Shown: in pieces, positions 3,702-52,589 of the stretch | Layout: every line of letters begins with the position of its first letter | Numbering within the stretch: position 1 is the first letter of the stretch | DNA from: an uncultured Gammaproteobacteria bacterium | GTDB taxonomy: Bacteria > Patescibacteriota > Patescibacteriia > UBA9934 | Direction of reading: 5' to 3' | Length of the DNA stretch: 62,953 nucleotides | Assembly: GCA_964462325.1 (NCBI GenBank) | Contig: CAYWYQ010000001.1 | Span: 1-62,953, forward strand | Notes under the pieces: generated by a model | Told to the model about the DNA's origin: nothing | The model's input: only the letters and a program-made list of their open reading frames with translations | The model's database searches: none | Position numbers and translations under genes: made by a program

Positions 3702-3777
3702 GCCGCGATAGCTCAGTTGGTAGAGCGCTTCCATGGTAAGGAAGAGGTCTCGGGTTCAAATCCCGATCGTGGCTCCA
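3702..3777 (+). tRNA. tRNA-Thr (anticodon GGT) with encoded CCA
   Basis: Hand-folded cloverleaf: acceptor GCCGCGA/TCGTGGC, D arm GCTC/GAGC, anticodon arm CTTCC-ATGGTAA-GGAAG, T arm TCGGG-TTCAAAT-CCCGA; 76 nt. Confidence 0.92.
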
Positions 3778-3969: not shown

Positions 3970-3984
3970 TTTAGAACTTGTCTT

Positions 3985-4075
3985 TTTCTTCCTATACGTT
4001 GTCACAACTCCGGTGCTCGACACCGTACCTTTCAGTACGGCTTACTCTTGCTCCTCATTGTTCCTAGTATAGAAA
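3985..4075 (+). repeat. LH element, diverged copy
   Basis: GCTCGACACCGTACCTTTCAGTACGGCTTACT (apex 4024-4039) aligns with the centre of 13764-13886. Confidence 0.5.
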
Positions 4076-4097
4076 GAAAAATCCTACGTTTGTAAAA

Positions 4098-4113
4098 TCA
4101 AAATCGGGCTCCA
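4098..4113 (+). repeat. second degenerate copy of the tRNA-Thr 3' end
   Basis: TCAAAATCGGGCTCCA resembles TTCAAATCCCGATCGTGGCTCCA with an internal deletion. Confidence 0.4.
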
Positions 4114-4140
4114 TTAGGTTAGAGTTTCAGGTGACCAATA

Positions 4141-4165
4141 AGAAAACCGAGGCGTGATGTCTCGG
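4141..4165 (-). terminator. intrinsic terminator for the small minus-strand ORF
   Basis: On the minus strand: CCGAG-ACATCACGC-CTCGG followed by TTTTCT. Confidence 0.45.
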
Positions 4166-4191
4166 AAGATTATTTGAGAATATGGCGGTAT

Positions 4192-4365
4192 TCACGGCGA
4201 CCCGTGACTATCAGTGTGTACAGCATTTGTACCGCATTCCTGCACATAACTTGTAAACAAGAATATGGCGAAGACGAAGAAGACAACGATGGCACGACCG
4301 GTCGTACCACTACTTTTTTGATCCTGATTATCATCCCAGTCGGCAATTTTGTTTTCTGAACTCAC
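4192..4365 (-). CDS. small membrane protein (57 aa), unknown function
   Basis: GTG start 2 nt after GGAGGTG (SD core GGAGG 4 nt upstream). One TM segment (AIVVFFVFAIFLF). It has its own promoter and terminator. Below the 60-aa ORF-track cutoff. Confidence 0.4.
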   Translation of the reverse strand: MSSENKIADWDDNQDQKSSGTTGRAIVVFFVFAIFLFTSYVQECGTNAVHTDSHGSP

Positions 4366-4389
4366 GACACCTCCAATATTTTCAGTCTG

Positions 4390-4440
4390 AGATTACCAAA
4401 TGTAATGTATATTGACAATGAGTTTTTTGATAGGTAATTT
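4390..4440. promoter_or_regulatory. back-to-back divergent promoters sharing the palindromic -35 ATTGACAAT
   Basis: Plus strand: TTGACA (4412-4417), 17 nt, TAATTT (4435-4440). Minus strand: TTGTCA (4418-4413), 17 nt, TAATCT (4395-4390). Confidence 0.5.
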
Positions 4441-4474
4441 ATTCATAGTCCTTTACACCTACAGGAGATCATCC

Positions 4475-5316
4475 ATGTACCGGAACCCCCAAAGAGAAGA
4501 GGCAGCAAAACTGGCGGCGAGGCATGCAATCAAGCATCTTGGTCTAAAACATATGAAGGCCCCTTCTATCGCGATTGTTCTTGGAACCGGATGGGGGATG
4601 CAATTCATTTCAATAATGAACGCGCCATCTCCCTTGCGGTCATTCCGGGATTCGAATACCTACGAGAAATGAATGTAGTTGCTGGTCACGACAAACAACT
4701 TGTGACGGGTACACTCGCTGGAAAGCAGGTATTGGCCCTACGTGGTCGAATTCATCTCAATGAAGACCCTGTGCAGACAGGGAATGTCATGAACATGGTA
4801 CGCCTGCAGGCCGAGATGTTGTTTCAGATGGGCGTGCATAAACTCATTCTGACCTGTGCGGCTGGGAGCTTGGTTCTTCCTGTTGAGGTCGGTCAGGTGG
4901 TCATTGTACGCAACTTTGTACTTCCAGCGAGCATTGTTCTTCCCCTTTGGGGAGGGGAATTTGTCATGCCGGAAGACGCGTTTACGCCTGAGCTCGCCAA
5001 AATGGCTCGTCATGAGAAAACAGGCTTACATGTTTCATACGGGTCTTATGCCTATGTGCGTGGTCCTGGTTTTGAGGGGAGAGCCAGAGACAAGGAGAAC
5101 CTCAGACGTGCAGGTGCAGACATTGTTGGGATGAGCATGGTGCCGAGTGCGGCGATTGCATGTCTCTATCGGTCGGATGGAGTGCAGACACTTGGTCTTG
5201 CCTATATCACCAATGATGCTATCGAAGAACATTCCCATGAGGAAAATCGTGCGAGAGCACTTGCTGATCAGGAGGGATTGGCAGAATACCTGAGGTCTAT
5301 TGTCGGAAAACTCTAA
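4475..5316 (+). pseudogene. purine nucleoside phosphorylase family gene interrupted by a -1 frameshift in a G5 run
   Basis: ORF 4412..4672 carries ...IAIVLGTGWG. ORF 4591..5316 continues DAIHFNNERAISLAVIPGFEYL...VAGHDKQLVTGTLAGKQVLALRGRIH. The frames join at GGGGG 4593-4597. AGGAG lies 7 nt before ATG 4475. Confidence 0.75.
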
Positions 5317-6269: not shown

Positions 6270-7274
6270 ATGAAATTACTTGTGACAGGTGGGGCGGGAT
6301 TTATTGGGTCGAATTTCATTCATTATTGGATGGAAAAATACCCGGAAGACGAGATTGTGAATCTTGATGCTTTAACCTATGCGGGGAATTTAGAAAATCT
6401 GCAAACGGTTGAAAATCTATCAAACTATACCTTTGTAAAAGGAGATATTACGAACAAGGAATTGGTACAAAAATTGGTAAAAGATGTCGACATCATCGTG
6501 CATTATGCAGCGGAAAGTCATGTGGATCGCTCTATATTAGACCCAACGGCATTCATAAAAACGAATGTCCTTGGCACACAAGTATTGCTAGATGCAGCTC
6601 GGAAGCACAATACGCGATTCCACCATGTTTCAACAGATGAAGTCTATGGAACACTCGCGCCAGATGAATCTGCATTCACTGAAAACTCTCCGTATAAACC
6701 ACGTAGTCCCTATGCGGCAAGTAAGGCAGCGAGTGACCATTTAGTACGCGCCTACCATACGACGTATGGTTTACCGGTCACCATTTCGAATTGTTCAAAT
6801 AATTACGGGCCGTATCATTTTCCAGAGAAATTGATCCCATTATTTATTACGAATTTAATGGAAGGGAAGAAGGTGCCTGTGTACGGTGATGGAGGGCAGA
6901 TTCGTGACTGGATTCATACGATTGATCATGCGCGCGGCGTAGATGCGATCATAAAGAATGGGAAGATCGGTGCAACCTATTTACTTGGTGGAGATAATCA
7001 ACCTACGAATTTAGAAATCACAAAGATTCTACTTAATCTTCTCAATAAAGCGGAAGATTCCATTGAATTTGTAGAAGATCGTGCAGGACATGATAGGAGA
7101 TATGACATTGATTTTTCAAAAACAGAACAAGAGCTAGGGTGGAAACCACAAATCAATTTAGAGGATGGGTTGAAGGATACCGTTGAATGGTATAAAAAGA
7201 ACCAAGATTGGTGGCGCAGATGTAAATCAGGGGAGTATCAGAACTATTACAATAATCAGTACAAAAACCGATGA
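6270..7274 (+). CDS. rfbB: dTDP-glucose 4,6-dehydratase
   Basis: MKLLVTGGAGFIGSNF, YAAESHVDRS and YAASKAASDHLV (YxxxK) motifs; 334 aa. Confidence 0.9.
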   Translation: MKLLVTGGAGFIGSNFIHYWMEKYPEDEIVNLDALTYAGNLENLQTVENLSNYTFVKGDITNKELVQKLVKDVDIIVHYAAESHVDRSILDPTAFIKTNVLGTQVLLDAARKHNTRFHHVSTDEVYGTLAPDESAFTENSPYKPRSPYAASKAASDHLVRAYHTTYGLPVTISNCSNNYGPYHFPEKLIPLFITNLMEGKKVPVYGDGGQIRDWIHTIDHARGVDAIIKNGKIGATYLLGGDNQPTNLEITKILLNLLNKAEDSIEFVEDRAGHDRRYDIDFSKTEQELGWKPQINLEDGLKDTVEWYKKNQDWWRRCKSGEYQNYYNNQYKNR

Positions 7275-7275
7275 T

Positions 7276-8364
7276 ATGAAAGCAGTAGTAACCGCTGGAG
7301 GGAAGGGTTCTCGATTGAGGCCTGTGACATGGACAATGAATAAACATGCGATTCCGCTTGCAAATGAGCCGATGATTTTTAATGCATTTAAAAAAATTGC
7401 CGCAACAGGTATTACAGAAGTGGGCGTGATTATTAATGAAGGCGATACCATATTTCAGGAATTATGTGGGGATGGTTCACGATGGGGGATTCGGCTTACA
7501 TTTATCGAACAGATCGGTGGTGCACTTGGACTTGCAAATACCCTTTGGCAGGCAAAAGATTTTGTCGGGGACGATGATGTGCTTCTTTATTTAGGGGATA
7601 ATATCATTCTCGGGTCGCTCACTCCGCTTGTTGAAAAATTTCAGAATGAAGCATTACATTGTTGCCTTGCGCTGACCAAAATGCAAGATCCGCGTCGATT
7701 TGGGGTACCTGAAATTGATGAGAATGGACATATTATTGGTGTTGAGGAGAAGCCGGAACATCCAAAAAGTCCTTATGCAGTAACAGGGTTATATATTTAT
7801 AAAGGGAAGGATTACTTTGAAGCCTATTCACATATCGAACCTTCGGATCGGAATGAATATGAAATTTCTGATATACATGATTGGCTGGTCAGAAATGGGC
7901 GCAATGTTGGGTATGAAGAAATGACGGGTTGGTGGAAAGATACGGGAAAGCCCGATGATTTGCTTGAAGGGAATCAATTACTCCTTAATGAAATGATTTC
8001 AGAGGAGGCGGTGATTCATCCAAAAGCAAATGTACATCCTGATGCGCGTATACAGGGTCGCGTGAAGATTGGAGAAGGGGCAGATATTGCAGGCGATGTT
8101 TTATTGCGGGGACCTGTTGTGATTGGTGACGGTGCAAAACTGAAGAATTGTTCTATTGGACCGCATACGACCATCGGTAATAATACACAGATTTCAAATT
8201 GTGAAATTCAACATTCTATTGTGATGAATGCGGCGAAGATTGATACCTATGAGCGCATTTCTGACAGCATTATTGGGCATAATGCGACGATCGCGAGAAT
8301 GACAGATTCAAAGCCAGGGGGGTATAAGATGGTTATAGGAGAAAACACCTACCTCGAACTTTAA
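7276..8364 (+). CDS. sugar-1-phosphate nucleotidyltransferase (RmlA-like, long form with a C-terminal left-handed beta-helix)
   Basis: MKAVVTAGGKGSRLRP N-terminus and hexapeptide repeats in the C-terminal third. ATG 7276 lies 1 nt after the rfbB stop. Confidence 0.8.
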   Translation: MKAVVTAGGKGSRLRPVTWTMNKHAIPLANEPMIFNAFKKIAATGITEVGVIINEGDTIFQELCGDGSRWGIRLTFIEQIGGALGLANTLWQAKDFVGDDDVLLYLGDNIILGSLTPLVEKFQNEALHCCLALTKMQDPRRFGVPEIDENGHIIGVEEKPEHPKSPYAVTGLYIYKGKDYFEAYSHIEPSDRNEYEISDIHDWLVRNGRNVGYEEMTGWWKDTGKPDDLLEGNQLLLNEMISEEAVIHPKANVHPDARIQGRVKIGEGADIAGDVLLRGPVVIGDGAKLKNCSIGPHTTIGNNTQISNCEIQHSIVMNAAKIDTYERISDSIIGHNATIARMTDSKPGGYKMVIGENTYLEL

Positions 8365-8366
8365 GC

Positions 8367-8490
8367 TTCCGCTTGAAAATGGACGAACTTTGTATTCAGT
8401 TCTCCGTTCCGCGACTCATGTACGTTTCAGTACACTCGTCTTTGGTACTCGAACTTCAAACAAATTTCATTCCATTTTCTGCGCGGACGG
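8367..8490 (+). repeat. LH element, full-length reference copy (124 nt)
   Basis: 5' TTCCGCTTGAAAATGGA ... apex GTACGTTTCAGTAC (8420-8433) ... TCCATTTTCTGCGCGGACGG 3'. The arms are partly complementary. Confidence 0.75.
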
Positions 8491-8622
8491 GGTTAGAGAG
8501 AACAGACATATCCAGAGTTTTCTTGACGTATTTTTCTGTATGTGAATCTGGTTTATGCACAGGTTCTTTAAGAAAATGAACGTTTATGCTAACATTTTGA
8601 CGTAATCAGTAAACAAAAAAAT

Positions 8623-8907
8623 ATGGAAAAGCGACTAACAAAGTCACAGCTTATGTCAGCACTCGCTGAAACTTGGGGCCTTTCAAAGAAGGAAGCAGAA
8701 GAAGGGTACAATGCATTCGTTGAACTTCTTTACAAGGAGATCGGGCGTGCAGGAGAAGTAATGCTACCAGGACTTGGAAAGTTTGCGAAGAAGCACCGAA
8801 ATGCACGAATGGGTCGTAACCCAGCAACAGGTGAAGCAATTCAAATTCCAGCAAAAACAGTGATGAAGTTTTCTGTAAATAAAGCTGCAAAAGACGCACT
8901 TCTATAA
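8623..8907 (+). CDS. hup: HU-family DNA-binding protein
   Basis: 94 aa with LPGLGKF...RMGRNPATGEAIQIPAKTV, the typical HU/IHF beta-arm. Confidence 0.85.
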   Translation: MEKRLTKSQLMSALAETWGLSKKEAEEGYNAFVELLYKEIGRAGEVMLPGLGKFAKKHRNARMGRNPATGEAIQIPAKTVMKFSVNKAAKDALL

Positions 8908-8955
8908 GAATAGGGGTAAAAAAGAGAGTCATAACCTGTGGCTCTTTTTTATTTC

Positions 8956-9005
8956 TTCCGCTTGTTTATCTAGCTTTTAGCTGATTAGCGACTTAGCTAT
9001 TAGCA
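8956..9005 (+). repeat. LH 5' terminus followed by a TAGC-phased array
   Basis: TTCCGCTTGTTTATC, then TAGCTTTTAGCTGATTAGCGACTTAGCTATTAGCAC. Confidence 0.55.
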
Positions 9006-9093
9006 CGATGCTTATCGAAAGGTCAGTACCTCAAACGATCCACCGTCGCTTTACTTCCTAAAGCTATGGCTGGAGTATGCGAGGTCGGACCTT
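9003..9093. repeat. ATCGAAAGGTC / GAGGTCGGACCT hairpin-motif copies
   Basis: GATGCTTATCGAAAGGTCAGTACCTCAAACGATCC ... GCGAGGTCGGACCTT, related to 17012-17061 and 40909-40958. Confidence 0.5.
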
Positions 9094-9111
9094 AATAGGG
9101 TAGGTAGGGAG

Positions 9112-9191
9112 TAGTCGAATAGCAAGCTAGCTATTAGCATGTTAGCGATTTAGCCAATTAGCTACTAGCTTTTAGCGACTTAGCGTTTAGC
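9112..9191. repeat. TAGC-phased short tandem array (~10 units of 7-8 nt)
   Basis: TAGTCGAATAGCAAGCTAGCTATTAGCATGTTAGCGATTTAGCCAATTAGCTACTAGCTTTTAGCGACTTAGCGTTTAGC. Confidence 0.7.
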
Positions 9192-9195
9192 ATCT

Positions 9196-9232
9196 CGTCA
9201 TTTCGACCGAGCAAAGCGAGTGGAGAAATCTC
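9196..9232 (+). repeat. GTCATTTCGACCGAGC-type short repeat
   Basis: CGTCATTTCGACCGAGCAAAGCGAGTGGAGAAATCTC, an inverted counterpart of 1515-1551. Confidence 0.6.
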
Positions 9233-9254
9233 TTACAGTTTTGCGCCACAAGAA

Positions 9255-9281
9255 GATCCCAGATCAGGGTCTGGGATGACG
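9255..9281 (-). repeat. GTCATCCCAGA hairpin repeat
   Basis: GATCCCAGATCAGGGTCTGGGATGACG (stem CCCAGA/TCTGGG). Related copies lie at 11532-11556 and 41028-41053. Confidence 0.55.
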
Positions 9282-9354
9282 AAAGGTGAATCTCTTCAAG
9301 CACATGAATCTCCTTTTGTGGTTGAGGGTAGATAGTAGGGTGTAGTCGTAAGGT

Positions 9355-9371
9355 CCGAGGTTGAACCTCGG
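9355..9371. repeat. GAGGTT(C/G)AACCTC palindrome
   Basis: CCGAGGTTGAACCTCGG is a perfect 17-nt palindrome. Confidence 0.8.
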
Positions 9372-9425
9372 TTGATGAATACGCTCTTTCTTGATAGAAG
9401 CTTCAGAATTCGATAAGATCGAAAT

Positions 9426-10619
9426 ATGAGCGAGAAGGTAAAAATATTTTTCCGATTTGGTGCCCTCATGCTAGGCATCGTTTTTGTATTATCTGGAATT
9501 TCATGGAGAATATTTGTGGCCTATGCAAGTTTGGAAGATGTTATTCAGGTGGACCTTGTCGTAGAGGAATTACGTGAACGACGAGAAAAATTTACAGAAC
9601 TTGAAGAAGATATTGTTGACTTTGGTGCCGAGGACGAAATCAATATTCTTCTTTTAGGACTTGATGGAAGGAAGGGGTGGGACAATCCACACTGTGATGC
9701 TATTCATATGTTTACATTGAATCTGACGGACTGGACAATTCAAATAACCTCCGTGCCGCGGGGTACGTATGCGTACATTCCTGGACAGCATCTTGCAACC
9801 GATTACTATATTGCGAACGCCTGTTCATTTGAAGGGCTGGAATATGGAATAGAACAAATAGAAAAAGTCATTGGCGTCAAGACAGATTACTATGTCACCG
9901 TTGGATTTTCACAAGTATATGGAATATTACGTACATTTGATTTACCGACAACGGAATCACTGCAATTTTTACGCCACAGACAAAGTTATCAGATTGGTGA
10001 TCCGCAACGGAGCCATAATCAAGCCGTATTTATAAAAGACATAGCGTTGTCTCAAATGGGTCGTTTTAGAAGCGATTTGTTTAAACCGGCATTCTTCCTT
10101 CTCTTCAATATGATTGATACGGATATGGATTATACACTTGCGCGATCCCTGTTCTTTGGGTATCTGGATCATGACATTGATTCGAGGCCGGATGATATTA
10201 TTTTGCGCATGAGACCTCATTATGATACCGAAGATATTCATTTAGATTTTGATAATGTCGAAGAACAGATTGATACATTATTGACGCGTATTCGTGGCCG
10301 TGTTTCTGATGAAGACCTTTCCGATAGGCCACTTGAGGACTATCAAAAGGAACTTATACAATATTTAGAGGATCATTTGGAATATGGAGAGGATTTTGAC
10401 CTTGTGATTGATAAACGCCTATGGCTGCAAATAGAGGATGATGCAAAGCGTGAAGAATATCATTTTGCCTATTTAGAGCAACGTGTACGGCGGATGCAAG
10501 AGGATCAAATTGATGAAGCGATCGATCTCATAACGACATATATTATCGAAAAGGAAACCTTGGGAATATTTGAATCAGTTGAATGGGCTGAAGAGCTATT
10601 AAGAAGCGTGATAGAATAA
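9426..10619 (+). CDS. LytR-CpsA-Psr (LCP) family protein with an acidic C-terminal extension
   Basis: N-terminal TM segment, then INILLLGLDGR...DAIHMFTLN...ITSVPRGTY, which resembles the LCP core. Confidence 0.55.
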   Translation: MSEKVKIFFRFGALMLGIVFVLSGISWRIFVAYASLEDVIQVDLVVEELRERREKFTELEEDIVDFGAEDEINILLLGLDGRKGWDNPHCDAIHMFTLNLTDWTIQITSVPRGTYAYIPGQHLATDYYIANACSFEGLEYGIEQIEKVIGVKTDYYVTVGFSQVYGILRTFDLPTTESLQFLRHRQSYQIGDPQRSHNQAVFIKDIALSQMGRFRSDLFKPAFFLLFNMIDTDMDYTLARSLFFGYLDHDIDSRPDDIILRMRPHYDTEDIHLDFDNVEEQIDTLLTRIRGRVSDEDLSDRPLEDYQKELIQYLEDHLEYGEDFDLVIDKRLWLQIEDDAKREEYHFAYLEQRVRRMQEDQIDEAIDLITTYIIEKETLGIFESVEWAEELLRSVIE

Positions 10620-13465: not shown

Positions 13466-13468
13466 GGG

Positions 13469-13593
13469 TTCCGCTTGTCTATGAGCGATCTATCGGCTTA
13501 TAATTTCGATTTTGTCCTCACTGTACGTTTCAGTACAGCTGTGGAAAATCTCAATTCTTCACCAATATCTCATCTCATATCCTGCGCGGACGG
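13469..13593 (+). repeat. LH element, full copy
   Basis: TTCCGCTTG ... apex GTACGTTTCAGTAC (13523-13536) ... CCTGCGCGGACGG. Confidence 0.7.
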
Positions 13594-13632
13594 GGTTCAA
13601 GGCAAATTACATCCACTCTATTTCACTGACAA
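13594..13632 (+). repeat. LH half-element (3' arm only)
   Basis: GGTTCAAGGCAAATTACATCCACTCTATTTCACTGACA aligns with the 3' arm of 40783-40909. Confidence 0.5.
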
Positions 13633-13635
13633 AAG

Positions 13636-13759
13636 TTCCGCTTGTCTATTGGCGCTCTGTAGGATCAAGATTGCGAACCTGTCCTCATCGTACGTATTAG
13701 TACGCCTGCGGAAGGTTCTTATCTTTCGCCTAAATAGCATCCAATATCCTTCACGGACA
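13636..13759 (+). repeat. LH element, full copy
   Basis: TTCCGCTTG ... apex GTACGTATTAGTAC (13690-13703) ... TTCACGGACA. Confidence 0.7.
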
Positions 13760-13763
13760 AAAG

Positions 13764-13886
13764 TTCCGCTTGATAATTAAGGAACTTTACATTCACTTTT
13801 TCGGCCCTCGATACCGTACCTTTTAGTACGACTTACTTCGGTCTTCAATGTTCAAGTAAATTTCATTTAACTATCTACGCGGACGG
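13764..13886 (+). repeat. LH element, full copy
   Basis: TTCCGCTTG ... apex CGTACCTTTTAGTACG (13815-13830) ... CTACGCGGACGG. Confidence 0.7.
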
Positions 13887-16328: not shown

Positions 16329-16897
16329 AGTATTCCCAACATCATTTTACGAGGCAAAAAACAAAACAAGGTTCTGTGAAAGTGACTGTTATTGTTATTT
16401 TGGCTTTTATTCTTGCGGTATTGCTTGTAATTCTAGGATTAAGGGACATTGGAAACAGAACAATCGAAGAGGAAGTGATTACTACTCAAGAATCAGCACA
16501 GGAAATAAAAGAAGATGTACAGATGAAGGCGCTTGAAACGGTATCATATCCGGTAGAGGAAATTTTATTACATGGATCAGGTGAGTTTTCTGCCTCTGGA
16601 ATTGCAAGACGTGGCATAGAATCAAATATTTTTACACATGTGATCGTAACTGATTTACCGCCGATTAATCAAGATTTCTTTTTCTATGAAGGATGGCTTG
16701 TGATACCCGGTGTGACGGAGTTCTTTTCGACAGGTGTCATGTTCCTGCGTGAGGACGGTAAATGGGGGCTTGTTTTGGAGGAGGATATAACAGCTGGTTA
16801 TGAAGATGTGCTTGATTACAGCCGTGTGATTATAACGCGAGAGCCATTTGACAATGACCCTGCGCCGGATATTCATGTCGCCGAAGGAGATTTTTAA
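16325..16897 (+). CDS. membrane-anchored protein, unknown function
   Basis: Overlaps the helicase stop by 4 nt. Single TM segment (VTVIVILAFILAVLLVILG). The C-terminal domain is not recognised with confidence. Confidence 0.5.
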   Translation: MKYSQHHFTRQKTKQGSVKVTVIVILAFILAVLLVILGLRDIGNRTIEEEVITTQESAQEIKEDVQMKALETVSYPVEEILLHGSGEFSASGIARRGIESNIFTHVIVTDLPPINQDFFFYEGWLVIPGVTEFFSTGVMFLREDGKWGLVLEEDITAGYEDVLDYSRVIITREPFDNDPAPDIHVAEGDF

Positions 16898-16900
16898 GGC

Positions 16901-16984
16901 TTCCGCTTGAAAATTAACGAACTTTGCATTCACTCTTTCCTGTCCTCAACGTTCAAGTAAATTTCATTTAATTTTCTGTACGGG
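16901..16984 (+). repeat. LH element lacking the apex
   Basis: TTCCGCTTGAAAATTAACGAACTTTGCATTCA...CCTCAA|CGTTCAAGTAAATTTCATTTAATTTTCTGTACGG. The central ~40 nt are absent. Confidence 0.6.
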
Positions 16985-16985
16985 A

Positions 16986-17136
16986 TTTCGCTTGAAAATG
17001 GACGATCTGTCGACTCGTTGCGCATCGAAAGGTCTGTACCTCGATCGAGAGGTCGGACCTTGAAATGGACGTTTCAGTACAGCTGCGGGATATCTTCAAG
17101 CTTCATCGACATCTCATTCCATTTTCTGCGCGGACG
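16986..17136 (+). repeat. LH element carrying a nested 50-nt hairpin insertion
   Basis: TTTCGCTTGAAAATGGACG...[17012-17061]...TGAAATGGACGTTTCAGTAC...TCCATTTTCTGCGCGGACGG. Confidence 0.6.
17012..17061 (+). repeat. 50-nt hairpin element (GACTCGTTGC..ATCGAAAGGTC.GTACCTC.ATCGAGAGGTCGGACCTT)
   Basis: Near-identical to 40909-40958. It folds as AAGGTC.G-T-ACCTC / GAGGT-CGGACCTT. Confidence 0.65.
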
Positions 17137-17168
17137 GTTTTGTTGCTGAAAGACATGTCCGACTTTAT

Positions 17169-17211
17169 TCCGGAGGTTCAACCTCCAATATCCGAGGTTC
17201 AACCTCCAATA
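17169..17211. repeat. two tandem 21-22-nt units, each containing GAGGTTCAACCTC
   Basis: TCCGGAGGTTCAACCTCCAATA followed by TCCGAGGTTCAACCTCCAATA. Confidence 0.8.
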
Positions 17212-17244
17212 AAAGCCTTGTATGCCAAGAAATGCTATCACAGT

Positions 17245-17326
17245 GTGTTTATTGATGTTCAGTACAATAAACACATCCGAGGTTCAACCTCGAGGTTGAA
17301 CCTCGGTACGGCGAGGTTGAACCTCG
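17245..17326. repeat. AT-rich hairpin followed by three GAGGTT(C/G)AACCTC palindromes
   Basis: GTGTTTATTG-N10-CAATAAACAC, then CCGAGGTTCAACCTCGAGGTTGAACCTCGG (17277-17306) and GCGAGGTTGAACCTCG (17311-17326). Confidence 0.8.
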
Positions 17327-26839: not shown

Positions 26840-27187
26840 ATGAAAACAGTTCAAAATCAAGGAGTACAGGTCTGGGATATTGTTGTATTATTCCCGCTCC
26901 TATCAGTCGTTATTGTATTATTCGTCATGACATTAGTTGGATTTCAACTTGGTCAGGGAAATGAAATGACGCCATTCTTCCTATCTGTAATTTCTGTCGG
27001 GGGATTTGTCGCCTATGTAGGATCAATTGCATCAATGCTAGCCGGGTATATTTACGGAATTCACAGATTGTATACCCGAACAAAATTGGATGAGAAATCA
27101 AAGTTGTTTTGGCTGTGGATGGTGTTGTTGTTTAGTCCTATATCGGTACCGATACTACACTTCAAACACTTAAGAGCTACCGCTTGA
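26840..27187 (+). CDS. small membrane protein, unknown function
   Basis: Three or four TM helices. The last four codons, including the TGA, lie inside the LH element that starts at 27178. Confidence 0.45.
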   Translation: MKTVQNQGVQVWDIVVLFPLLSVVIVLFVMTLVGFQLGQGNEMTPFFLSVISVGGFVAYVGSIASMLAGYIYGIHRLYTRTKLDEKSKLFWLWMVLLFSPISVPILHFKHLRATA

Positions 27188-27299
27188 AAATGGACGAACT
27201 TTGTCCTCAGTTCTTTGGTCCTCGCTCCATGTACGTATTAGTACACTCCGCTACGGTCCCCGAACTTCGTACAAATTTCATTCCATTTTCTGCGCGGAT
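27178..27299 (+). repeat. LH element, full copy
   Basis: TACCGCTTGAAAATGGACGAACTTTG ... apex GTACGTATTAGTAC (27231-27244) ... TCCATTTTCTGCGCGGAT. Confidence 0.7.
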
Positions 27300-27360
27300 A
27301 AGGTTCAAGGAAATAGCATCCAGTTTTCTGCGCGGGGCTACCGCTTGAAAATGGACGATC
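27300..27360 (+). repeat. LH half-elements (a 3' arm, then a 5' arm)
   Basis: AGGTTCAAGGAAATAGCATCCAGTTTTCTGCGCGG followed by CTACCGCTTGAAAATGGACGATC. Confidence 0.55.
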
Positions 27361-38110: not shown

Positions 38111-38249
38111 TACGCTTGAAATTCATCCGTTTATATATTGGCGCATTTTTTTCACACATCTACGCGTTTCACTGCACTGTGCGTTCTAGTGCACTTCAGT
38201 TCTGCACTCGATGATTTAAACAAATTACATCCAGTCAATTACGCGGACA
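38111..38249 (+). repeat. LH element, divergent subfamily
   Basis: ACGCTTGAAATTCATCCGTTTATATATTGGCG ... apex GCACTGTGCGTTCTAGTGC ... AATTACATCCAGTCAATTACGCGGACA. The 5' arm matches copy 40783. Confidence 0.55.
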
Positions 38250-38300
38250 TGTTTCAAGGAAATATCATCTCGTTTTCTGTGCGAACTATGTCGGACCTTA
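38250..38300 (+). repeat. LH half-element (3' arm) plus a GTCGGACCTT motif
   Basis: TGTTTCAAGGAAATATCATCTCGTTTTCTGTGCGAACTATGTCGGACCTT. Confidence 0.45.
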
Positions 38301-40782: not shown

Positions 40783-40909
40783 ACTCCGTTTATATACTGG
40801 CGTACTTTGCATTCACATCTTGCGCACTTCGCTACACTGTACGTATTAGTACACTTCCGCTCAGTGCTCGATGTTCAAGCAAATTACATCCAGTCTATTT
40901 CACGGACGG
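40783..40909 (+). repeat. LH element, full copy
   Basis: CCGTTTATATACTGGCG... apex GTACGTATTAGTAC (40839-40852) ... AATTACATCCAGTCTATTTCACGGACGG. Confidence 0.65.
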
Positions 40910-40958
40910 ACTCGTTGCCTATCGAAAGGTCCGTACCTCAATCGAGAGGTCGGACCTT
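40909..40958 (+). repeat. 50-nt hairpin element (second copy)
   Basis: GACTCGTTGCCTATCGAAAGGTCCGTACCTCAATCGAGAGGTCGGACCTT, compare 17012-17061. Confidence 0.65.
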
Positions 40959-48468: not shown

Positions 48469-48474
48469 ATTAAT

Positions 48475-48520
48475 CCGAGGTTCAACCTCGATATATTATC
48501 CCCACCGAGGTTCAACCTCG
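48475..48520. repeat. two CCGAGGTTCAACCTCG palindromes 30 bp apart
   Basis: Copies at 48475-48490 and 48505-48520. Confidence 0.8.
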
Positions 48521-48564
48521 CATATCCAAAAAGTGATTAAATAATACTCTTTTGCATAGATTAC

Positions 48565-48624
48565 CCTCCCGAGGTTCAACCTCGAGGTTGAACCTCGGTG
48601 TTGGAGGTTGAACCTCGGGAGGGG
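48565..48624. repeat. 60-nt compound palindrome built from three GAGGTT(C/G)AACCTC units
   Basis: CCCTCCCGAGGTTCAACCTCGAGGTTGAACCTCGGTGTTGGAGGTTGAACCTCGGGAGGGG. The outer 20 nt are perfectly complementary. Confidence 0.8.
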
Positions 48625-48664
48625 ATTTTACCCTGTAATCAAACTCTGATAATATCTGAGACGT

Positions 48665-50434
48665 ATGACATCTGCAGAACTTCGAAAACTCTATATTCGA
48701 TTTTTTACCCAAAATGGACATGCTGAAATCCCTTCAGCATCGGTTGTTCCAGAAAATGACCCTTCTGTTTTATTTACGACGGCAGGAATGCATCCGCTTG
48801 TACCGTATCTAACCGGGGAAACACATTCTGCCGGTACAAGGCTGGTTAATGCGCAAAAATGTGTTCGTACCGGAGACATTGATGAAGTTGGGGATGAAAC
48901 GCATCTGACATTTTTTGAGATGCTTGGGAATTGGTCACTTGGTGATTACTTTAAAAATGAATCCATAGAGTGGAGCTTTGAATTTTTGACATCGAATGAG
49001 TGGCTTGGGATACCGATTGAACGATTGGCGGTGAGTGTGTTTGCAGGTGATGACGATGCAGAATTTGATCAAGAGGCCTATGATCTATGGGCTTCTTTGG
49101 GTATTTCAGAATCAAGAATTGCAAAGCTTGGTAAAGAGGACAATTGGTGGCCTGCTGGCGGAAAACATACGGGACCTCAAGGACCGGATACGGAAATATT
49201 TTATTGGACGGGTGAGGGGAATGCTCCTGAAAGCTTTGATCCTGAAAATGAAGCATGGGTAGAAATTTGGAATAATGTATTCATGCAATTTAATAAGGAT
49301 GATGCAGGAAATTTGACGCCACTCACTCAGAAAAATGTTGATACCGGCATGGGACTTGAACGCGTCGTAGCTGTTCTGCAAGGAAAAAAATCCTCGTATG
49401 AAACAGATATTTTTGCAGGAATTCTTGGAAAAGTACAAGAGTTGTCCGGCAAAGAATACACAGGTGAATGGAAGCCATCGATGCGGATCATTGCAGATCA
49501 CATTCGTAGCGCCATCGTTATTATTTCAGATGGGATTCAGCCATCCAATAAGGATCAGGGGTATATTTTACGTCGATTGATTCGCCGAGCGGTGCGTCAT
49601 GCGCGTAAACTTGGTATTGCAGGAGTGGATTTGATGTCACCGTTGACGGATGAAGTTGTGAAATCTCTTGGTGAGGCATATCCGTCTATTGCTGAACAAA
49701 AAGAGATGATTGTGAATACTCTAGAACAAGAAGCAATGAAATTTGATAAGACGGTTGAAAAGGGTTTGCGCGAGCTGCAAAAACTGTGGGACAAGACACA
49801 AAATATTTCTGGTGAAGATGCATTTAATTTGTATCAAACATTTGGTTTTCCTTTTGAATTGACTGAAGAAGTAGCAAAAGAACATGGACAAACCGTAGAG
49901 TCAGGTGCATTTCGGAAGGCATTTGAGGATCATCAGGCGAAATCACGCGAAGGTGCTGGGAAAAAATTCGCTGGAGGATTAGCTGATGATTCTATTGAAA
50001 CAACGCGTCTTCATACGGCAACGCATTTACTTCATAAGGCGCTCCGCACCGTTCTTGGTGATCATGTAGAGCAAAAAGGATCGAATATCACAAAGGAAAG
50101 ACTACGTTTCGATTTCTCGCATGATGCAAAAATGACGGATGAACAAAAGGCCGAAGTTGAACATATTGTAAATGAACAAATTAACGCTGCATTACCCGTT
50201 ACATTTGAATTGATGAGCGTTGAGGATGCGAAAGCGGCAGGAGCGCTTGGATTTTTCGAAGACAAATACGCTCAACAGGGCGGAAAAATAAAAGTGTATT
50301 CTGTCGGAGATTTCAGTAAAGAGATTTGCGGCGGGCCTCATGTCACAAATACATCTGAACTTGGAAGCTTTAAAATCAAGAAAGAACAAGCCAGCTCTGC
50401 AGGAATACGACGGATAAAAGCCGTACTTAGTTGA
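48665..50434 (+). CDS. alaS: alanine--tRNA ligase, short form (no C-Ala domain)
   Basis: FFTQNGH, FTTAGM and WGDYFK-like class II motifs; editing-domain HTATHLLH and CGGPHV; ends at ...GIRRIKAVLS after 589 aa. Confidence 0.9.
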   Translation: MTSAELRKLYIRFFTQNGHAEIPSASVVPENDPSVLFTTAGMHPLVPYLTGETHSAGTRLVNAQKCVRTGDIDEVGDETHLTFFEMLGNWSLGDYFKNESIEWSFEFLTSNEWLGIPIERLAVSVFAGDDDAEFDQEAYDLWASLGISESRIAKLGKEDNWWPAGGKHTGPQGPDTEIFYWTGEGNAPESFDPENEAWVEIWNNVFMQFNKDDAGNLTPLTQKNVDTGMGLERVVAVLQGKKSSYETDIFAGILGKVQELSGKEYTGEWKPSMRIIADHIRSAIVIISDGIQPSNKDQGYILRRLIRRAVRHARKLGIAGVDLMSPLTDEVVKSLGEAYPSIAEQKEMIVNTLEQEAMKFDKTVEKGLRELQKLWDKTQNISGEDAFNLYQTFGFPFELTEEVAKEHGQTVESGAFRKAFEDHQAKSREGAGKKFAGGLADDSIETTRLHTATHLLHKALRTVLGDHVEQKGSNITKERLRFDFSHDAKMTDEQKAEVEHIVNEQINAALPVTFELMSVEDAKAAGALGFFEDKYAQQGGKIKVYSVGDFSKEICGGPHVTNTSELGSFKIKKEQASSAGIRRIKAVLS

Positions 50435-50511
50435 TGTAAGAGATAAGATCACTATCTATGCAAGAAAAAAGAAACAAGTCAGGTGCAGAATTTATCAAGA
50501 AGAAATAAAAT

Positions 50512-51987
50512 TTGCATCAAAGCAAAGAGGTTGAATCTGCAAAAAAAAGAAAAGAGGAAAAAACAGGAGAGGTTATTCCACAAAGTCCCGAGGTACAAAT
50601 TCAGAATTATTTAGATCGTTTTCAAGAAATCATTGATCGTGAGAATGGTCAGAGTCGACAAGACGGAATCGAAGCCATTAAGCGATTCATGCGTCGAAGA
50701 TTTGTCATACAGTCAGAAGATATACCAGAGTCTGTTTTTCTCTTAGAGCAGCGTATTGCAAGGCAGCTCGGTCATGGTCATGTAGAAATCACGGAAGAAT
50801 TCAAAAAACGCAAAATAAAAGAGATTATAGACAATCAAGTACAGTCACTCGATAAGTGGATAGACTATTTATCAAGCGAAGATGCGACATACCCGGATTG
50901 GGCAAAATATTGGGCATTCCGAAGTGTGACGGAAATGGGGAAACTCAAAAGGAAAGAAGGAAAAGATGGATCAATCACCGCCTCTTTTTCAAAACGGAAA
51001 AAAGACACTGCTTCAGCATTTCCGCCCATGAATCCACGCGCTCTTGCTCTTGTGGTAGATACAATTACAAAACAAGTACAAGAAAAGCAAAAACCAAAGA
51101 AAAAGAGGATGCCCCTTAAAAATATCAGTAAAAAACTAGACGACGCGGCATTTAGACAACTGACTTCAACAGAAAGCTTTTCCAAAATCTATGCACAATT
51201 TCTTGTTGAGCTTCCAGAATACTCAACAGAAGGACTACAGGAGATTCGCGGTGAATGGGTAAAGTATGATCAGGGGTCAAAACCAGATACGCTCGTGAAG
51301 TCCCTCGAAGGATATCCACTTGAATGGTGTACAGCTGGATATGACACAGCAGAATCACAATTACAAGGAGGGGATTTTTATGTGTACTATTCATTAAATG
51401 AAGATGGGAATGCACATGTTCCACGCGTCGCTATACGTATGGAGCAAGAACGTATCGCAGAAGTACGAGGTATAGCACCGAATCAAGAAGTTGATCCCTA
51501 TATTTCTCCCGTGATTGAAGAAAAGATGGAGGAATTTGGTAAAGAAGGTGAAATCTATCAAAAGCGAAGTCGGGACATGAAGCAACTGACGGATATAGAA
51601 ATGCGCTCACAGCATCAAGAGCTGACGAGGGAAGATCTTCGATTTTTGTATGAAATCGACGGACAAATTGAAGGATTTGGCTATAGCGGAGATCCACGTA
51701 TAGACGAATTGCTGGAAGGGAGGGATAGGCGATTAGACATTGCAACGGTATTGCAGGTTTCACCTGAACAAATAAGTTTTTCGCAAGAAGAGGCAATTGC
51801 AGGCGATATTGTATTCCATTACGGAGATCTTAATTTTCTGAGACTTACATCTGCAGAGGGACTCACACTTCCTGAATCTGTAGGCGGAAGCCTTAATCTT
51901 TGGAGACTTACATCTGCAGAGGGACTCACACTTCCTGAATCTGTAGGCGGAGACCTTTATCTTGGGGGACGCGCCGAGGGAGAATAA
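50512..51987 (+). CDS. protein of unknown function with a C-terminal 21-aa LRR-like tandem repeat
   Basis: TTG start. An upstream in-frame ATG (50458) is separated from it by TAA (50506). The central LEWCTAGY...GGDFYVYYS...VAIRME...IAEVRG is faintly PcfJ-like. The C-terminus has RLTSAEGLTLPESVGG twice. Confidence 0.6.
   Translation: MHQSKEVESAKKRKEEKTGEVIPQSPEVQIQNYLDRFQEIIDRENGQSRQDGIEAIKRFMRRRFVIQSEDIPESVFLLEQRIARQLGHGHVEITEEFKKRKIKEIIDNQVQSLDKWIDYLSSEDATYPDWAKYWAFRSVTEMGKLKRKEGKDGSITASFSKRKKDTASAFPPMNPRALALVVDTITKQVQEKQKPKKKRMPLKNISKKLDDAAFRQLTSTESFSKIYAQFLVELPEYSTEGLQEIRGEWVKYDQGSKPDTLVKSLEGYPLEWCTAGYDTAESQLQGGDFYVYYSLNEDGNAHVPRVAIRMEQERIAEVRGIAPNQEVDPYISPVIEEKMEEFGKEGEIYQKRSRDMKQLTDIEMRSQHQELTREDLRFLYEIDGQIEGFGYSGDPRIDELLEGRDRRLDIATVLQVSPEQISFSQEEAIAGDIVFHYGDLNFLRLTSAEGLTLPESVGGSLNLWRLTSAEGLTLPESVGGDLYLGGRAEGE
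51823..51966 (+). repeat. 63-bp tandem repeat (~2.3 units) inside the CDS
   Basis: A 48-nt core AGACTTACATCTGCAGAGGGACTCACACTTCCTGAATCTGTAGGCGGA is identical at 51841-51888 and 51904-51951. Confidence 0.85.
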
Positions 51988-52033
51988 ACAGTATTAAGAA
52001 GCAAATATCCTCATCATTCAATAGTATAAATCA

Positions 52034-52093
52034 ATCAAGAAAGAAGAAGCATCATCTGCTGGCGTGCGAAGGATTAAAGCGGTACTTGGGTAA
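52034..52093 (+). pseudogene. relic alaS 3'-terminal fragment (19 codons plus stop)
   Basis: It translates to IKKEEASSAGVRRIKAVLG*, against IKKEQASSAGIRRIKAVLS* at the end of alaS. 45/60 nt are identical in my hand alignment. Confidence 0.7.
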
Positions 52094-52097
52094 TGCC

Positions 52098-52182
52098 TTG
52101 ACATTTTACATAATATTAAGTAAACTCCTCTTGCGATTAGAAAGCTCATTTTCTTGCCAATAAAAGCGTAATCTGCTATATT
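52098..52182 (+). promoter_or_regulatory. two candidate promoters upstream of infA
   Basis: TTGACA-17-TAAACT (52098-52126) and TTGCCA-17-TATATT (52154-52182). The latter ends 11 nt before ATG 52194. Confidence 0.5.
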
Positions 52183-52193
52183 CCAAACGAATT

Positions 52194-52409
52194 ATGGCAG
52201 AAAAACAATTTATTGAAATGCGGGGATCCGTCGAAGAATCTCTTCCGGCGGGTAAATTCCGCATCAAGCTTGAAAATGATCAAGAAATCACAGGTCATTT
52301 GTCCGGTAAACTTCGGAAATTTAGAATCCGAATCATGCCAGGCGATGACGTAAAAGTGGAGATCAGTCCATATGATCTCACGAAAGGGCGCATCACTTAC
52401 AGATTTTAA
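52194..52409 (+). CDS. infA: translation initiation factor IF-1
   Basis: 71 aa, S1-like: ...[49 protein letters not shown]. Confidence 0.92.
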
Positions 52410-52420
52410 AACCCACTGAA

Positions 52421-52520
52421 TCGCGATCTGTCGTTTCAGTTCATCACAAATTTCCTCATCGTACGTTTCAGTACGTCTGCGGAATTTGTTTGAACTTCAA
52501 CGACATCTCATCGATTCATA
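52421..52520 (+). repeat. LH element, diverged copy
   Basis: Apex GTACGTTTCAGTAC (52461-52474). The flanks CCTCATC...TCTGCGGAA...CTTCAACGACATCTCATC align with copies 1238 and 13469. Confidence 0.6.
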
Positions 52521-52589
52521 GGATTTTAAACACGAAATAGATGATGAATCATTAAATTTCAAAAAATCTGAAAGGCATGCCGGTCTTTA

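Follow-up and report, generated by a model that had tools for sequence, protein, structure and literature searches.

A putative recombinase-less cassette carrying a surrogate alaS 3′ end in a Patescibacteria genome and recurrence of its scar around a large protein family

Results

The alaS–infA junction and its repeat pair

In this study, we analysed a 62,953-nt stretch of Patescibacteria DNA (contig CAYWYQ010000001.1, hereafter the window; G+C content 40.6%), in which the junction between alaS, encoding alanyl-tRNA synthetase (AlaRS), and infA, encoding initiation factor IF-1, is occupied by a segment with one large open reading frame (ORF). The gene order reads SpoU-GT2-DUF389-CorA-PTAC-PKD-MurJ-AlaRS-(ORF)-IF1-S13-S11-S4-RpoA-L17-L13-S9, and the closest database AlaRS proteins are Patescibacteria metagenome sequences, i.e. 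of the Candidate Phyla Radiation (CPR). The segment is flanked by two diverged copies of the last 60 nt of alaS, of which copy A is the gene end in current use and copy B an untranslated relic upstream of infA (Table 1). This arrangement represents a foreign cassette of 1,659 nt (about 50375–52033), inserted in alaS 60 nt before the stop codon. Copy A is followed in it by 23 nt of spacer, a single cargo gene and a last 4 nt.

Copies A and B are identical at 45 of 60 nt and 16 of 19 aa, the same figures on recount as in a first-pass annotation of this DNA. The pair is unique in the window, where the next-best 60-mer on either strand matches at fewer than 38 of 60 positions, and it is found by self-BLAST (E = 2.9e-7); no further gene-end duplications were detected in the window, the remaining self-matches being a dispersed intergenic repeat family. 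The upstream edge of the pair is sharp, with only 4 of 30 nt matching in the 30 nt 5′ of the two copies, and the left edge of the repeat itself is marked by exact identity over 13 nt (about 12–13 nt, AATCAAGAAAGAA). Eleven of the 15 differences fall in 8 codons that are kept synonymous, including a switch of Ser codon family (AGC/TCA), while three codons alter the amino acid (Q/E, I/V, S/G) and the remaining difference falls in the stop codon (TGA in copy A, TAA in copy B). When 15 substitutions were placed at random in a simulation, at most three amino acid changes together with an intact frame arose in 1 of 100,000 trials (P = 1e-5). Blastx of copy B returned AlaRS C-termini as best matches. 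No Rfam family was found at copy B, the sole Rfam match in the window being a tRNA at 3702–3774, and a conserved regulatory RNA, which the first-pass annotation had named as an alternative identity of the relic, was rejected on this search.

An empty site and the polarity of the insertion

Relatives were found by a protein database search with AlaRS, and two of them, L163 and L165, share the whole gene order. Among GTDB species representatives searched with the same protein, the best was 60% identical and none carried the ORF within 6 kb. In L165 (AlaRS 71% identical) the order is murJ-alaS-infA with 127 nt from alaS to infA and nothing between them, which represents an empty site. In L163, the closest relative (AlaRS 86% identical), the junction holds another gene of 250 aa on the minus strand (9831–10583), for which no match in Pfam or NCBIfam was obtained, and there is no relic. 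With one relative empty and the other carrying a different gene, the junction is variable and the ORF in the window is an insertion; accessory genes thus land repeatedly at this junction. The first-pass annotation had pointed to this junction as the place to look for empty sites and had held that an arrangement common to all relatives would speak for an ancient fixed duplication; neither relative has it.

Comparison with L163 also gives the polarity. The relic is identical to the L163 AlaRS end at 19 of 19 aa and 51 of 60 nt and fits the clade consensus KEEASSAG[VI]RRIKA[VI]LG, while copy A carries a Q and a terminal S that are both rare among 120 AlaRS homologues. Per 60 nt, distances amount to 15 between A and B, 15 between A and L163 and 9 between B and L163, and at the 15 A/B differences L163 sides ten times with B and four times with A. 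The four B-specific changes all lie at third codon positions, and lineage-specific changes number 10–11 in copy A, which is under selection, versus 4–5 in the relic. When aligned with L163, the 120 nt 5′ of the repeat show 83% nucleotide identity; over the final 48 nt the value is 69% for copy A and 81% for the relic. Since the untranslated relic is nearer to the functional gene of L163 than to copy A, and this without any amino acid change, the pair cannot represent an old local duplication. Copy B is thus the native alaS end, recently frozen, and copy A an import from a lineage about 25% diverged, so that the body of alaS is native and its last 48–60 nt or so are imported. The foreign stretch seems to start roughly where the repeat does, but the statistical case for this is weak, given how distant the closest relative is. 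Among the alaS 3′ ends of 83 loci, no donor nearer to copy A than the native lineage was found, the best (42/54) being L163 itself. The proposals of the first-pass annotation that most differences are synonymous, that the copies diverged in separate lineages and are no recent local duplication, and that a surrogate 3′ end has displaced the original all hold up against the three-way distances and the simulation.

The cargo gene

The ancestral cargo frame starts 23 nt past the alaS stop and its ancestral stop (52027–52029) lies 4 nt before the relic, but two in-frame TAA codons interrupt it. One, at 50506–50508, stands where homologues have the Tyr of FLKKKY, and read-through from the ATG at 50458 gives MQEKRNKSGAEFIKKK, the stop and then NLHQSKEVE, to be compared with FLKKKYNNLH in homologues. 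The other, at 51985–51987, lies 14 codons before the conserved tail ending at 52029; read-through gives GE, the stop, TVLRSKYPHHSIV and the ancestral stop, so that the family tail sits past the in-frame TAA. Given these two codons and only about 2.4 copies of a repeat that usually occurs 8–20 times in homologues (13 in L002), the cargo looks degenerate, probably a decaying gene or else one whose N- and C-trimmed product is translated from the TTG at 50512. Of the two options that the first-pass annotation had left for the element, mobilisation in trans or decay, the latter probably applies.

Searches of the cargo ORF in Pfam, PHROG and NCBIfam gave no match, and a PADLOC match was meaningless. 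AlphaFold gave a confident model (pLDDT 85), to which Foldseek found no match in the PDB at E ≤ 0.001; the cargo profile yielded only a weak match to the leucine-rich repeats (LRR) of SlrP among PDB sequences (E = 0.28). A recombinase or nuclease as identity of the cargo was rejected on these grounds. No recombinase is encoded in the insert, in about 8 kb upstream or in about 5.5 kb downstream, the flanking genes being housekeeping genes, which agrees with the earlier description of a single large ORF that lacks a recombinase. The composition of the insert shows no anomaly and equals that of the host.

Table 1. Features of the alaS–infA junction in the window and duplicated gene pieces at other loci
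Sequence	Feature	Position	Strand	Remarks
window	alaS, short 589-aa AlaRS form	48665..50434	+	Pfam tRNA-synt_2c 2.6e-142 and tRNA_SAD; syntenic in L163 and L165
window	copy A, left direct repeat, alaS 3′ end in current use	50375..50434	+	ATCAAG...AGTTGA, encoding IKKEQASSAGIRRIKAVLS and stop; surrogate, imported
window	spacer, 23 nt, alaS stop to ancestral ATG of cargo	50435..50457	+	read from sequence
window	cargo gene, ancestral frame	50458..52029	+	longest intact ORF 50512–51987, 491 aa; LRR-type member of CPR family
window	about 2.4 copies of 63-nt (21-aa) repeat LxLxxLTSAEGLTLPESVGGxL	51822..51970	+	self-BLAST 51822–51907 versus 51885–51970, 87%
window	junction, 4 nt (ATCA), ancestral stop of cargo to relic	52030..52033	+	read from sequence
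window	copy B, right direct repeat, displaced native alaS 3′ end, untranslated	52034..52093	+	ATCAAG...GGGTAA, encoding IKKEEASSAGVRRIKAVLG and stop
window	infA promoter-like site, TTGACA-17-TAAACT	52098..52126	+	begins 4 nt past relic stop
window	infA (IF-1), native downstream neighbour	52194..52409	+	Pfam eIF-1a 1.8e-22; heads infA-rpmJ-rpsM-rpsK-rpsD-rpoA-rplQ block
L093	70 nt of 3′ end of upstream gene			+5 from cargo stop
L099	61 nt, 3′ end of convergent downstream gene			relic upstream
L135	93 nt, greA 3′ end and terminator
L002, L169	first 14–15 codons of ndk after cargo			intact ndk before cargo
L119	5′ end of downstream methyltransferase gene			relic 1.4 kb upstream; additional AbiEi-like gene
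L134	348 nt of htpX			97% identity
L108	intact secA, 265-aa methyltransferase-like non-family cargo, secA 3′ relic	3981–4875		relic 2 nt past cargo stop
L166	three copies of a 54–61-nt element
L190	44-nt repeat

A large CPR protein family with diversity-generating members

The cargo belongs to a family of more than 2,800 homologues, mostly of 600–850 aa, of which those named come from CPR or Patescibacteria; beyond the database entry of the ORF itself (P0001, 100%), the best homologue scores E = 6.6e-237. The alignment falls into a conserved N-domain of about 430 aa with a conserved N-terminus (FLxKKY..LHxS), the invariant WC of GYPLEWCTA and the motifs GGDFYVYYS, PRVAIRM and VRGIA, followed by a variable number of 21-aa repeats (LxLxxLTSAEGLxLPxxIGGx) and a short tail (LRxxYPxxxI).

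The C-terminal module varies between these 21-aa repeats and a C-type-lectin-like (CLec) variable repeat with a template. In L132, L129, L127 and L113, and also in L144 and L138, a module ending in FVFRLRK takes the place of the repeats, and such members are followed 3′ by a gene for a four-helix Avd-like protein and by a reverse transcriptase gene (RVT_1). In the first four, nearly all mismatches between the 3′ end of the ORF and a downstream repeat fall on adenines of that repeat (18/19, 15/16, 20/20 and 22/23, respectively); in L132 the variable repeat at the ORF 3′ end spans 6749–6891 and the template downstream 7196–7338. By these patterns, the four ORFs are genuine targets of diversity-generating retroelements (DGRs), and the N-domain thus serves DGR targets across CPR as an N-terminal module that lacks annotation. 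In published surveys, CPR DGR targets are mostly without recognisable domains (PMC8144416). The core of the N-domain together with LRR-like repeats is also found inside proteins of about 2,850–3,500 aa on viral contigs. The cargo is thus to be classed with binding or conflict proteins, a fast-turnover class exposed to diversifying pressure, and not as a recombinase.

The viral members, on five IMG/VR contigs of 35–66 kb (L171–L173, L182 and L184), are giant phage proteins with a WCT...GDFYVY...PRIAVRM...EVRG core and additional metalloprotease-like and acetyltransferase-like stretches, and they look like polyvalent or injected virion proteins. In L002, two paralogues of the family (158–2170 and 8001–10199), 37% identical over the N-domain, reside in one ribosomal-protein/secY cluster, one just 5′ of rpsN and the other after map-ndk, where infA normally sits. 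A G+C-rich, structured-looking stretch (10380–10510) with a terminator-like hairpin at its end lies 3′ of the ndk 5′ relic in this locus and could be a small RNA gene.

Recurrence of the scar at other loci

For the 57 family ORFs with both flanks available, 700 nt on the 5′ side were compared with 350 nt on the 3′ side for direct repeats of at least 30 nt (E < 1e-3). Such repeats flank 10 of these ORFs, compared with 4 of 295 control ORFs (Fisher p = 3.6e-6), or 6 of 157 if controls are taken from CPR loci alone (p = 0.002); the scar thus recurs. Across loci, the repeats, of 23–348 nt and 72–100% identity, stem from unrelated genes, with pieces of tatD, greA, ndk, secA and again alaS, and share no motif that is obvious on inspection (Table 1). 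In six loci (the window, L093, L099, L002, L084 and L108) the relic lies 0–7 nt from the cargo stop. The secA relic of L108 is 81% identical and has Tyr in place of the first Cys in the zinc-binding CxC motif.

L097 contains a second, independent alaS 3′ fragment (encoding HVENTSELGTFKIKKEQSSSKGVRRIKAVLQ and a stop), again with the rare Q, located 40 nt 5′ of one family ORF and 155 nt 3′ of the end of another. Its block corresponding to the 13-nt left edge in the window differs at 2 of 13 positions, and the closest relatives of the L097 ORF (P0010 and P0025) do not lie beside alaS. The question raised in the first-pass annotation, whether other copies of the ORF abut alaS-like pieces, is answered positively by L097 and, in a wider sense, by the 10 ORFs with duplicated pieces of neighbouring genes. 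From its proposal of an insertion that targets the alaS terminus, the insertion stands, while specificity for alaS does not, since many gene ends are used across the family. Unrelated genes, varied lengths and the lack of an obvious motif are hard to fit to one sequence-specific recombinase, but fit homology-guided events.

Units, arrays and a closed cycle

At several loci the gene-end fragment and the ORF occur together. L168 reads ORF end, tatD relic 1, ORF, tatD relic 2, next gene, with units about 90% identical, and is a true tandem array; in L084, a wrap-around contig, a tatD 3′ fragment lies between tandem family ORFs. In L116, an ORF end is joined to an ORF start via a hybrid repeat, whose 5′ part corresponds to the right repeat and whose 3′ part corresponds to the left repeat of L093, just the reciprocal product that a recombination event joining the L093 flanking repeats should leave. 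The ends of L191, which is 1,784 nt long and was assembled by MEGAHIT (k141), overlap exactly over 141 nt, so that the contig can be closed to a cycle of 1,643 nt that contains one 496-aa family ORF and 152 nt only. By these structures, gene-end fragment and ORF are shown to behave together as one unit, and L191 is a candidate for either an excised circle or a perfect tandem array. Circular junctions, which the first-pass annotation had suggested looking for, are thus represented by the L191 cycle, with the reservation that a tandem array would give the same sequence, and no such junction was found for the cassette in the window.

Further features of the window

The TTGACA block 5′ of infA is also present in L163 and L165, and as it precedes infA in both relatives, the insertion left the expression signals of infA untouched. 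Dispersed intergenic repeats of about 100–150 nt (62–92% identical) occur in more than 10 copies in the 63 kb of the window, including 8364–8505, 13468–13886, 16894–17160, 27175–27334, 38126–38283, 40785–40939 and 52426–52526, with one copy between infA and rpmJ; they resemble small non-autonomous repeats of the miniature inverted-repeat transposable element (MITE) or repetitive extragenic palindromic (REP) type. The murJ–alaS spacer (48470–48630) contains clustered copies of a palindromic motif (GAGGTTCAACCTCG / CGAGGTTGAACCTCG), with related sequence at 17169–17326.

Discussion

We propose, as a reading that we consider on balance probable, that a cassette devoid of a recombinase was integrated by homology via the gene-end fragment it carries. 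In this model, the fragment would serve as a portable homology site, comparable to an att site, and a circular or tandem unit of gene-end fragment and ORF would cross over once with the matching chromosomal gene end. Such a Campbell-type insertion-duplication, here at the conserved 12–13 nt of the left edge (AATCAAGAAAGAA), would duplicate the target as diverged direct repeats and leave the gene intact; in the window, copy A completes the AlaRS frame, and the native last 20 codons are displaced and untranslated before an intact infA promoter. The flanking repeats could later allow excision, tandem amplification or loss, and catalysis would be provided by host recombination functions or by a factor in trans rather than by an integrase encoded in the cassette. 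The hybrid composition expected of a Campbell-type event is seen in the window, with a foreign copy A and a copy B that is native past its first 13 nt, and in L116 as the reciprocal hybrid of the L093 repeats, and orphan fragment-plus-ORF units that support this mode of carriage are found in L097, L084 and L168.

Several observations weigh against this proposal. An identity of 12–13 nt is far below the usual requirement of RecA, and a crossover at the left edge driven purely by RecA would be inefficient, copy A being about 25% diverged. The left junction is placed statistically (33/48 matches observed versus about 40 expected), with the closest relative only 76% identical in alaS at the nucleotide level. 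Repeats are missing at 47 of the 57 family loci, and L002 and L169, in which intact ndk and the ORF are followed by an ndk 5′ fragment without the remainder of ndk, require an extra deletion. Neither a circular molecule nor a junction read was seen for the cassette in the window, and L191 could be a perfect tandem array, since L168 proves that such arrays exist.

The strongest competing explanation, homology-facilitated illegitimate recombination (HFIR), starts from linear transforming DNA of a donor in which alaS was already followed by the ORF. The left end of such a fragment would have recombined by homology inside alaS, while its right end, just past the ORF stop, would have been joined illegitimately to the recipient 60 nt before the alaS stop, so that the last 60 nt of the recipient gene stayed behind as the relic. 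That the relic is native, the functional end foreign and a recombinase absent is accounted for equally well. HFIR would also readily explain why the repeats, which vary in length, stem from 3′ or 5′ ends and lie to either side of the cargo, in some cases along with additional genes (L119, L134 and L108), look like one-off scars, and why the same scars surround non-family cargo (L108 and L139). The host-like composition of the cargo would, in this case, make the donor a related CPR bacterium. However, identity to L163 is maintained up to the repeat and falls only within copy A, so that no long foreign anchor is visible, and the right joint shows no microhomology, ATCA being duplicated and not shared. 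In addition, the distance of 0–7 nt between cargo stop and relic in six loci is too regular for random illegitimate joints, and the orphan fragment-plus-ORF units, tandem arrays and closed cycle are not predicted. We therefore regard HFIR as unlikely, though as an explanation to be taken seriously. A related scenario, in which alaS plus ORF was imported beside the resident alaS and a deletion then truncated the ORF, was rejected, as the C-terminal tail continues in frame past the TAA to within 4 nt of the relic. An element specific for the alaS 3′ end, served by a tyrosine or serine recombinase in trans with the 13 nt of AATCAAGAAAGAA as crossover core, would share its geometry of surrogate end and displaced original with islands that integrate into tRNA genes or gene ends, and the exact identity at the left edge, the second alaS-associated family member in L097 and the tandem accretion in L168 would suit it. 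Nevertheless, 12 nt of this putative core are ordinary conserved alaS sequence (IKKE), the same in L163, and the block in L097 deviates from it. Related cassettes reside at unrelated gene ends, with repeats that differ widely in length and have no obvious common motif; no integrase was found in the insert or in the flanks searched, and there are neither inverted repeats nor attC-like cores. This option is accordingly held to be improbable.

Two further explanations can be set aside with more confidence. The first is that the alaS end was duplicated locally long ago, for instance as a long target-site duplication, and then diverged in place; this view draws on repeats elsewhere that are up to 97–100% identical (L134 and L084), some of which may have begun identical. 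It is contradicted by a relic nearer to L163 (9/60, no amino acid change) than to copy A (15/60), by the larger number of lineage-specific changes in the selected copy than in the supposedly neutral one, by the rarity of so few amino acid changes under neutrality and by relatives that do not have the arrangement, and is thus very improbable. Hardly credible is, finally, that the repeats are a template/variable pair of a DGR or a metagenome mis-assembly of two strains. True pairs of this kind, with a reverse transcriptase and an Avd-like gene, do occur in family members (L132, L129, L127 and L113), but when one or the other copy is taken as template, only 7 or 4 of the 15 A/B mismatches coincide with its adenines, compared with 15/16 to 22/23 in real DGRs; the window holds no reverse transcriptase or Avd gene, and a variable repeat belongs in the target gene and not in alaS. 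The sequence of the window is metagenome-derived, yet mis-assembly would not give an in-register gene end, cargo and relic abutting a conserved infA promoter, and the same arrangement is present in contig L001.

If integration via the carried gene-end fragment is taken together with the units, arrays and closed cycle, a more speculative picture emerges, which as a joint reading we regard as rather doubtful. CPR bacteria may harbour minimal recombinase-less mobile cassettes of about 1.6–2 kb, consisting of one gene and a 20–350-nt fragment of a host gene end, that move as circles. These circles may excise via the flanking repeats and re-integrate where the carried fragment finds a homologue, so that each lineage of cassettes would have a portable attachment site that also repairs the interrupted gene. 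Help may come from the novel-fold N-domain of the cargo or from a host factor, and not from RecA alone.

The alaS locus provides a clean, polarised case of a foreign gene in the coding end of the essential alanyl-tRNA synthetase gene without harm to it, in an uncultivated host lineage with tiny genomes, for which little is known about the movement of accessory genes. Because the scar recurs around a large unannotated CPR family that includes DGR targets and giant-phage relatives, it marks the exchange of a fast-evolving repertoire of binding proteins. Should circles indeed move via a carried gene-end fragment, this would constitute a new and very economical mode of mobility, and an orphan gene end directly past a cargo stop would become a practical signature of recent transfer in metagenome-assembled genomes.

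The overall kind of arrangement is already known; what would be new is a minimal cassette that is free of a recombinase, brings a surrogate gene end, occurs in CPR and goes with one large protein family that lacks characterisation. The cassette is not an integrase-borne island, an integron cassette, a transposon or a DGR repeat pair, since for each class a defining feature was looked for and found absent. Neither transposase domain nor terminal inverted repeats, as expected of transposons and insertion sequences, were detected, and the duplicated stretch measures 60 nt, shows 25% divergence and is of foreign origin. Islands and prophages that integrate into tRNA, tmRNA or protein gene 3′ ends by means of a tyrosine integrase have in common with it a replacement end and displaced original, direct repeats, empty sites and tandem accretion, and dusA-type islands show the same surrogate-end arrangement at a 5′ end. 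In contrast to such gene-end islands, the cassette in the window consists of a single 1.6-kb gene without an integrase, the repeats appear to be diverged over their whole length and not built on a defined core of identity, and many unrelated gene ends are used. Integron cassettes and integrative mobile elements exploiting Xer (IMEX) are likewise small, often of a single gene and without a recombinase of their own, can form circles and are stacked in arrays, but they target attI or dif and not the coding ends of housekeeping genes, whereas the cassettes described here have no site in common; no attC or GTTRRRY (RYYYAAC) cores and no inverted repeats were found at either cassette boundary. The orphan modules of polymorphic toxins (rhs, cdiA) are also acquired by homology, via a short matching stretch on the incoming module; they leave the old 3′ end downstream, form arrays of successively displaced ends and have no dedicated recombinase, with the difference that they change the C-terminal domain of the same protein, while the cassette reproduces the AlaRS end and adds an unrelated gene. 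Campbell-type integration and HFIR in transformable bacteria share with our case that host functions suffice, that short homology directs the landing and that the target is duplicated (Campbell) or scarred (HFIR). Both have been described chiefly from the laboratory, where homology of at least about 150 nt is required. At alaS, by comparison, it amounts to about 60 nt at about 75% identity, and the same cargo family recurs with such scars in nature.

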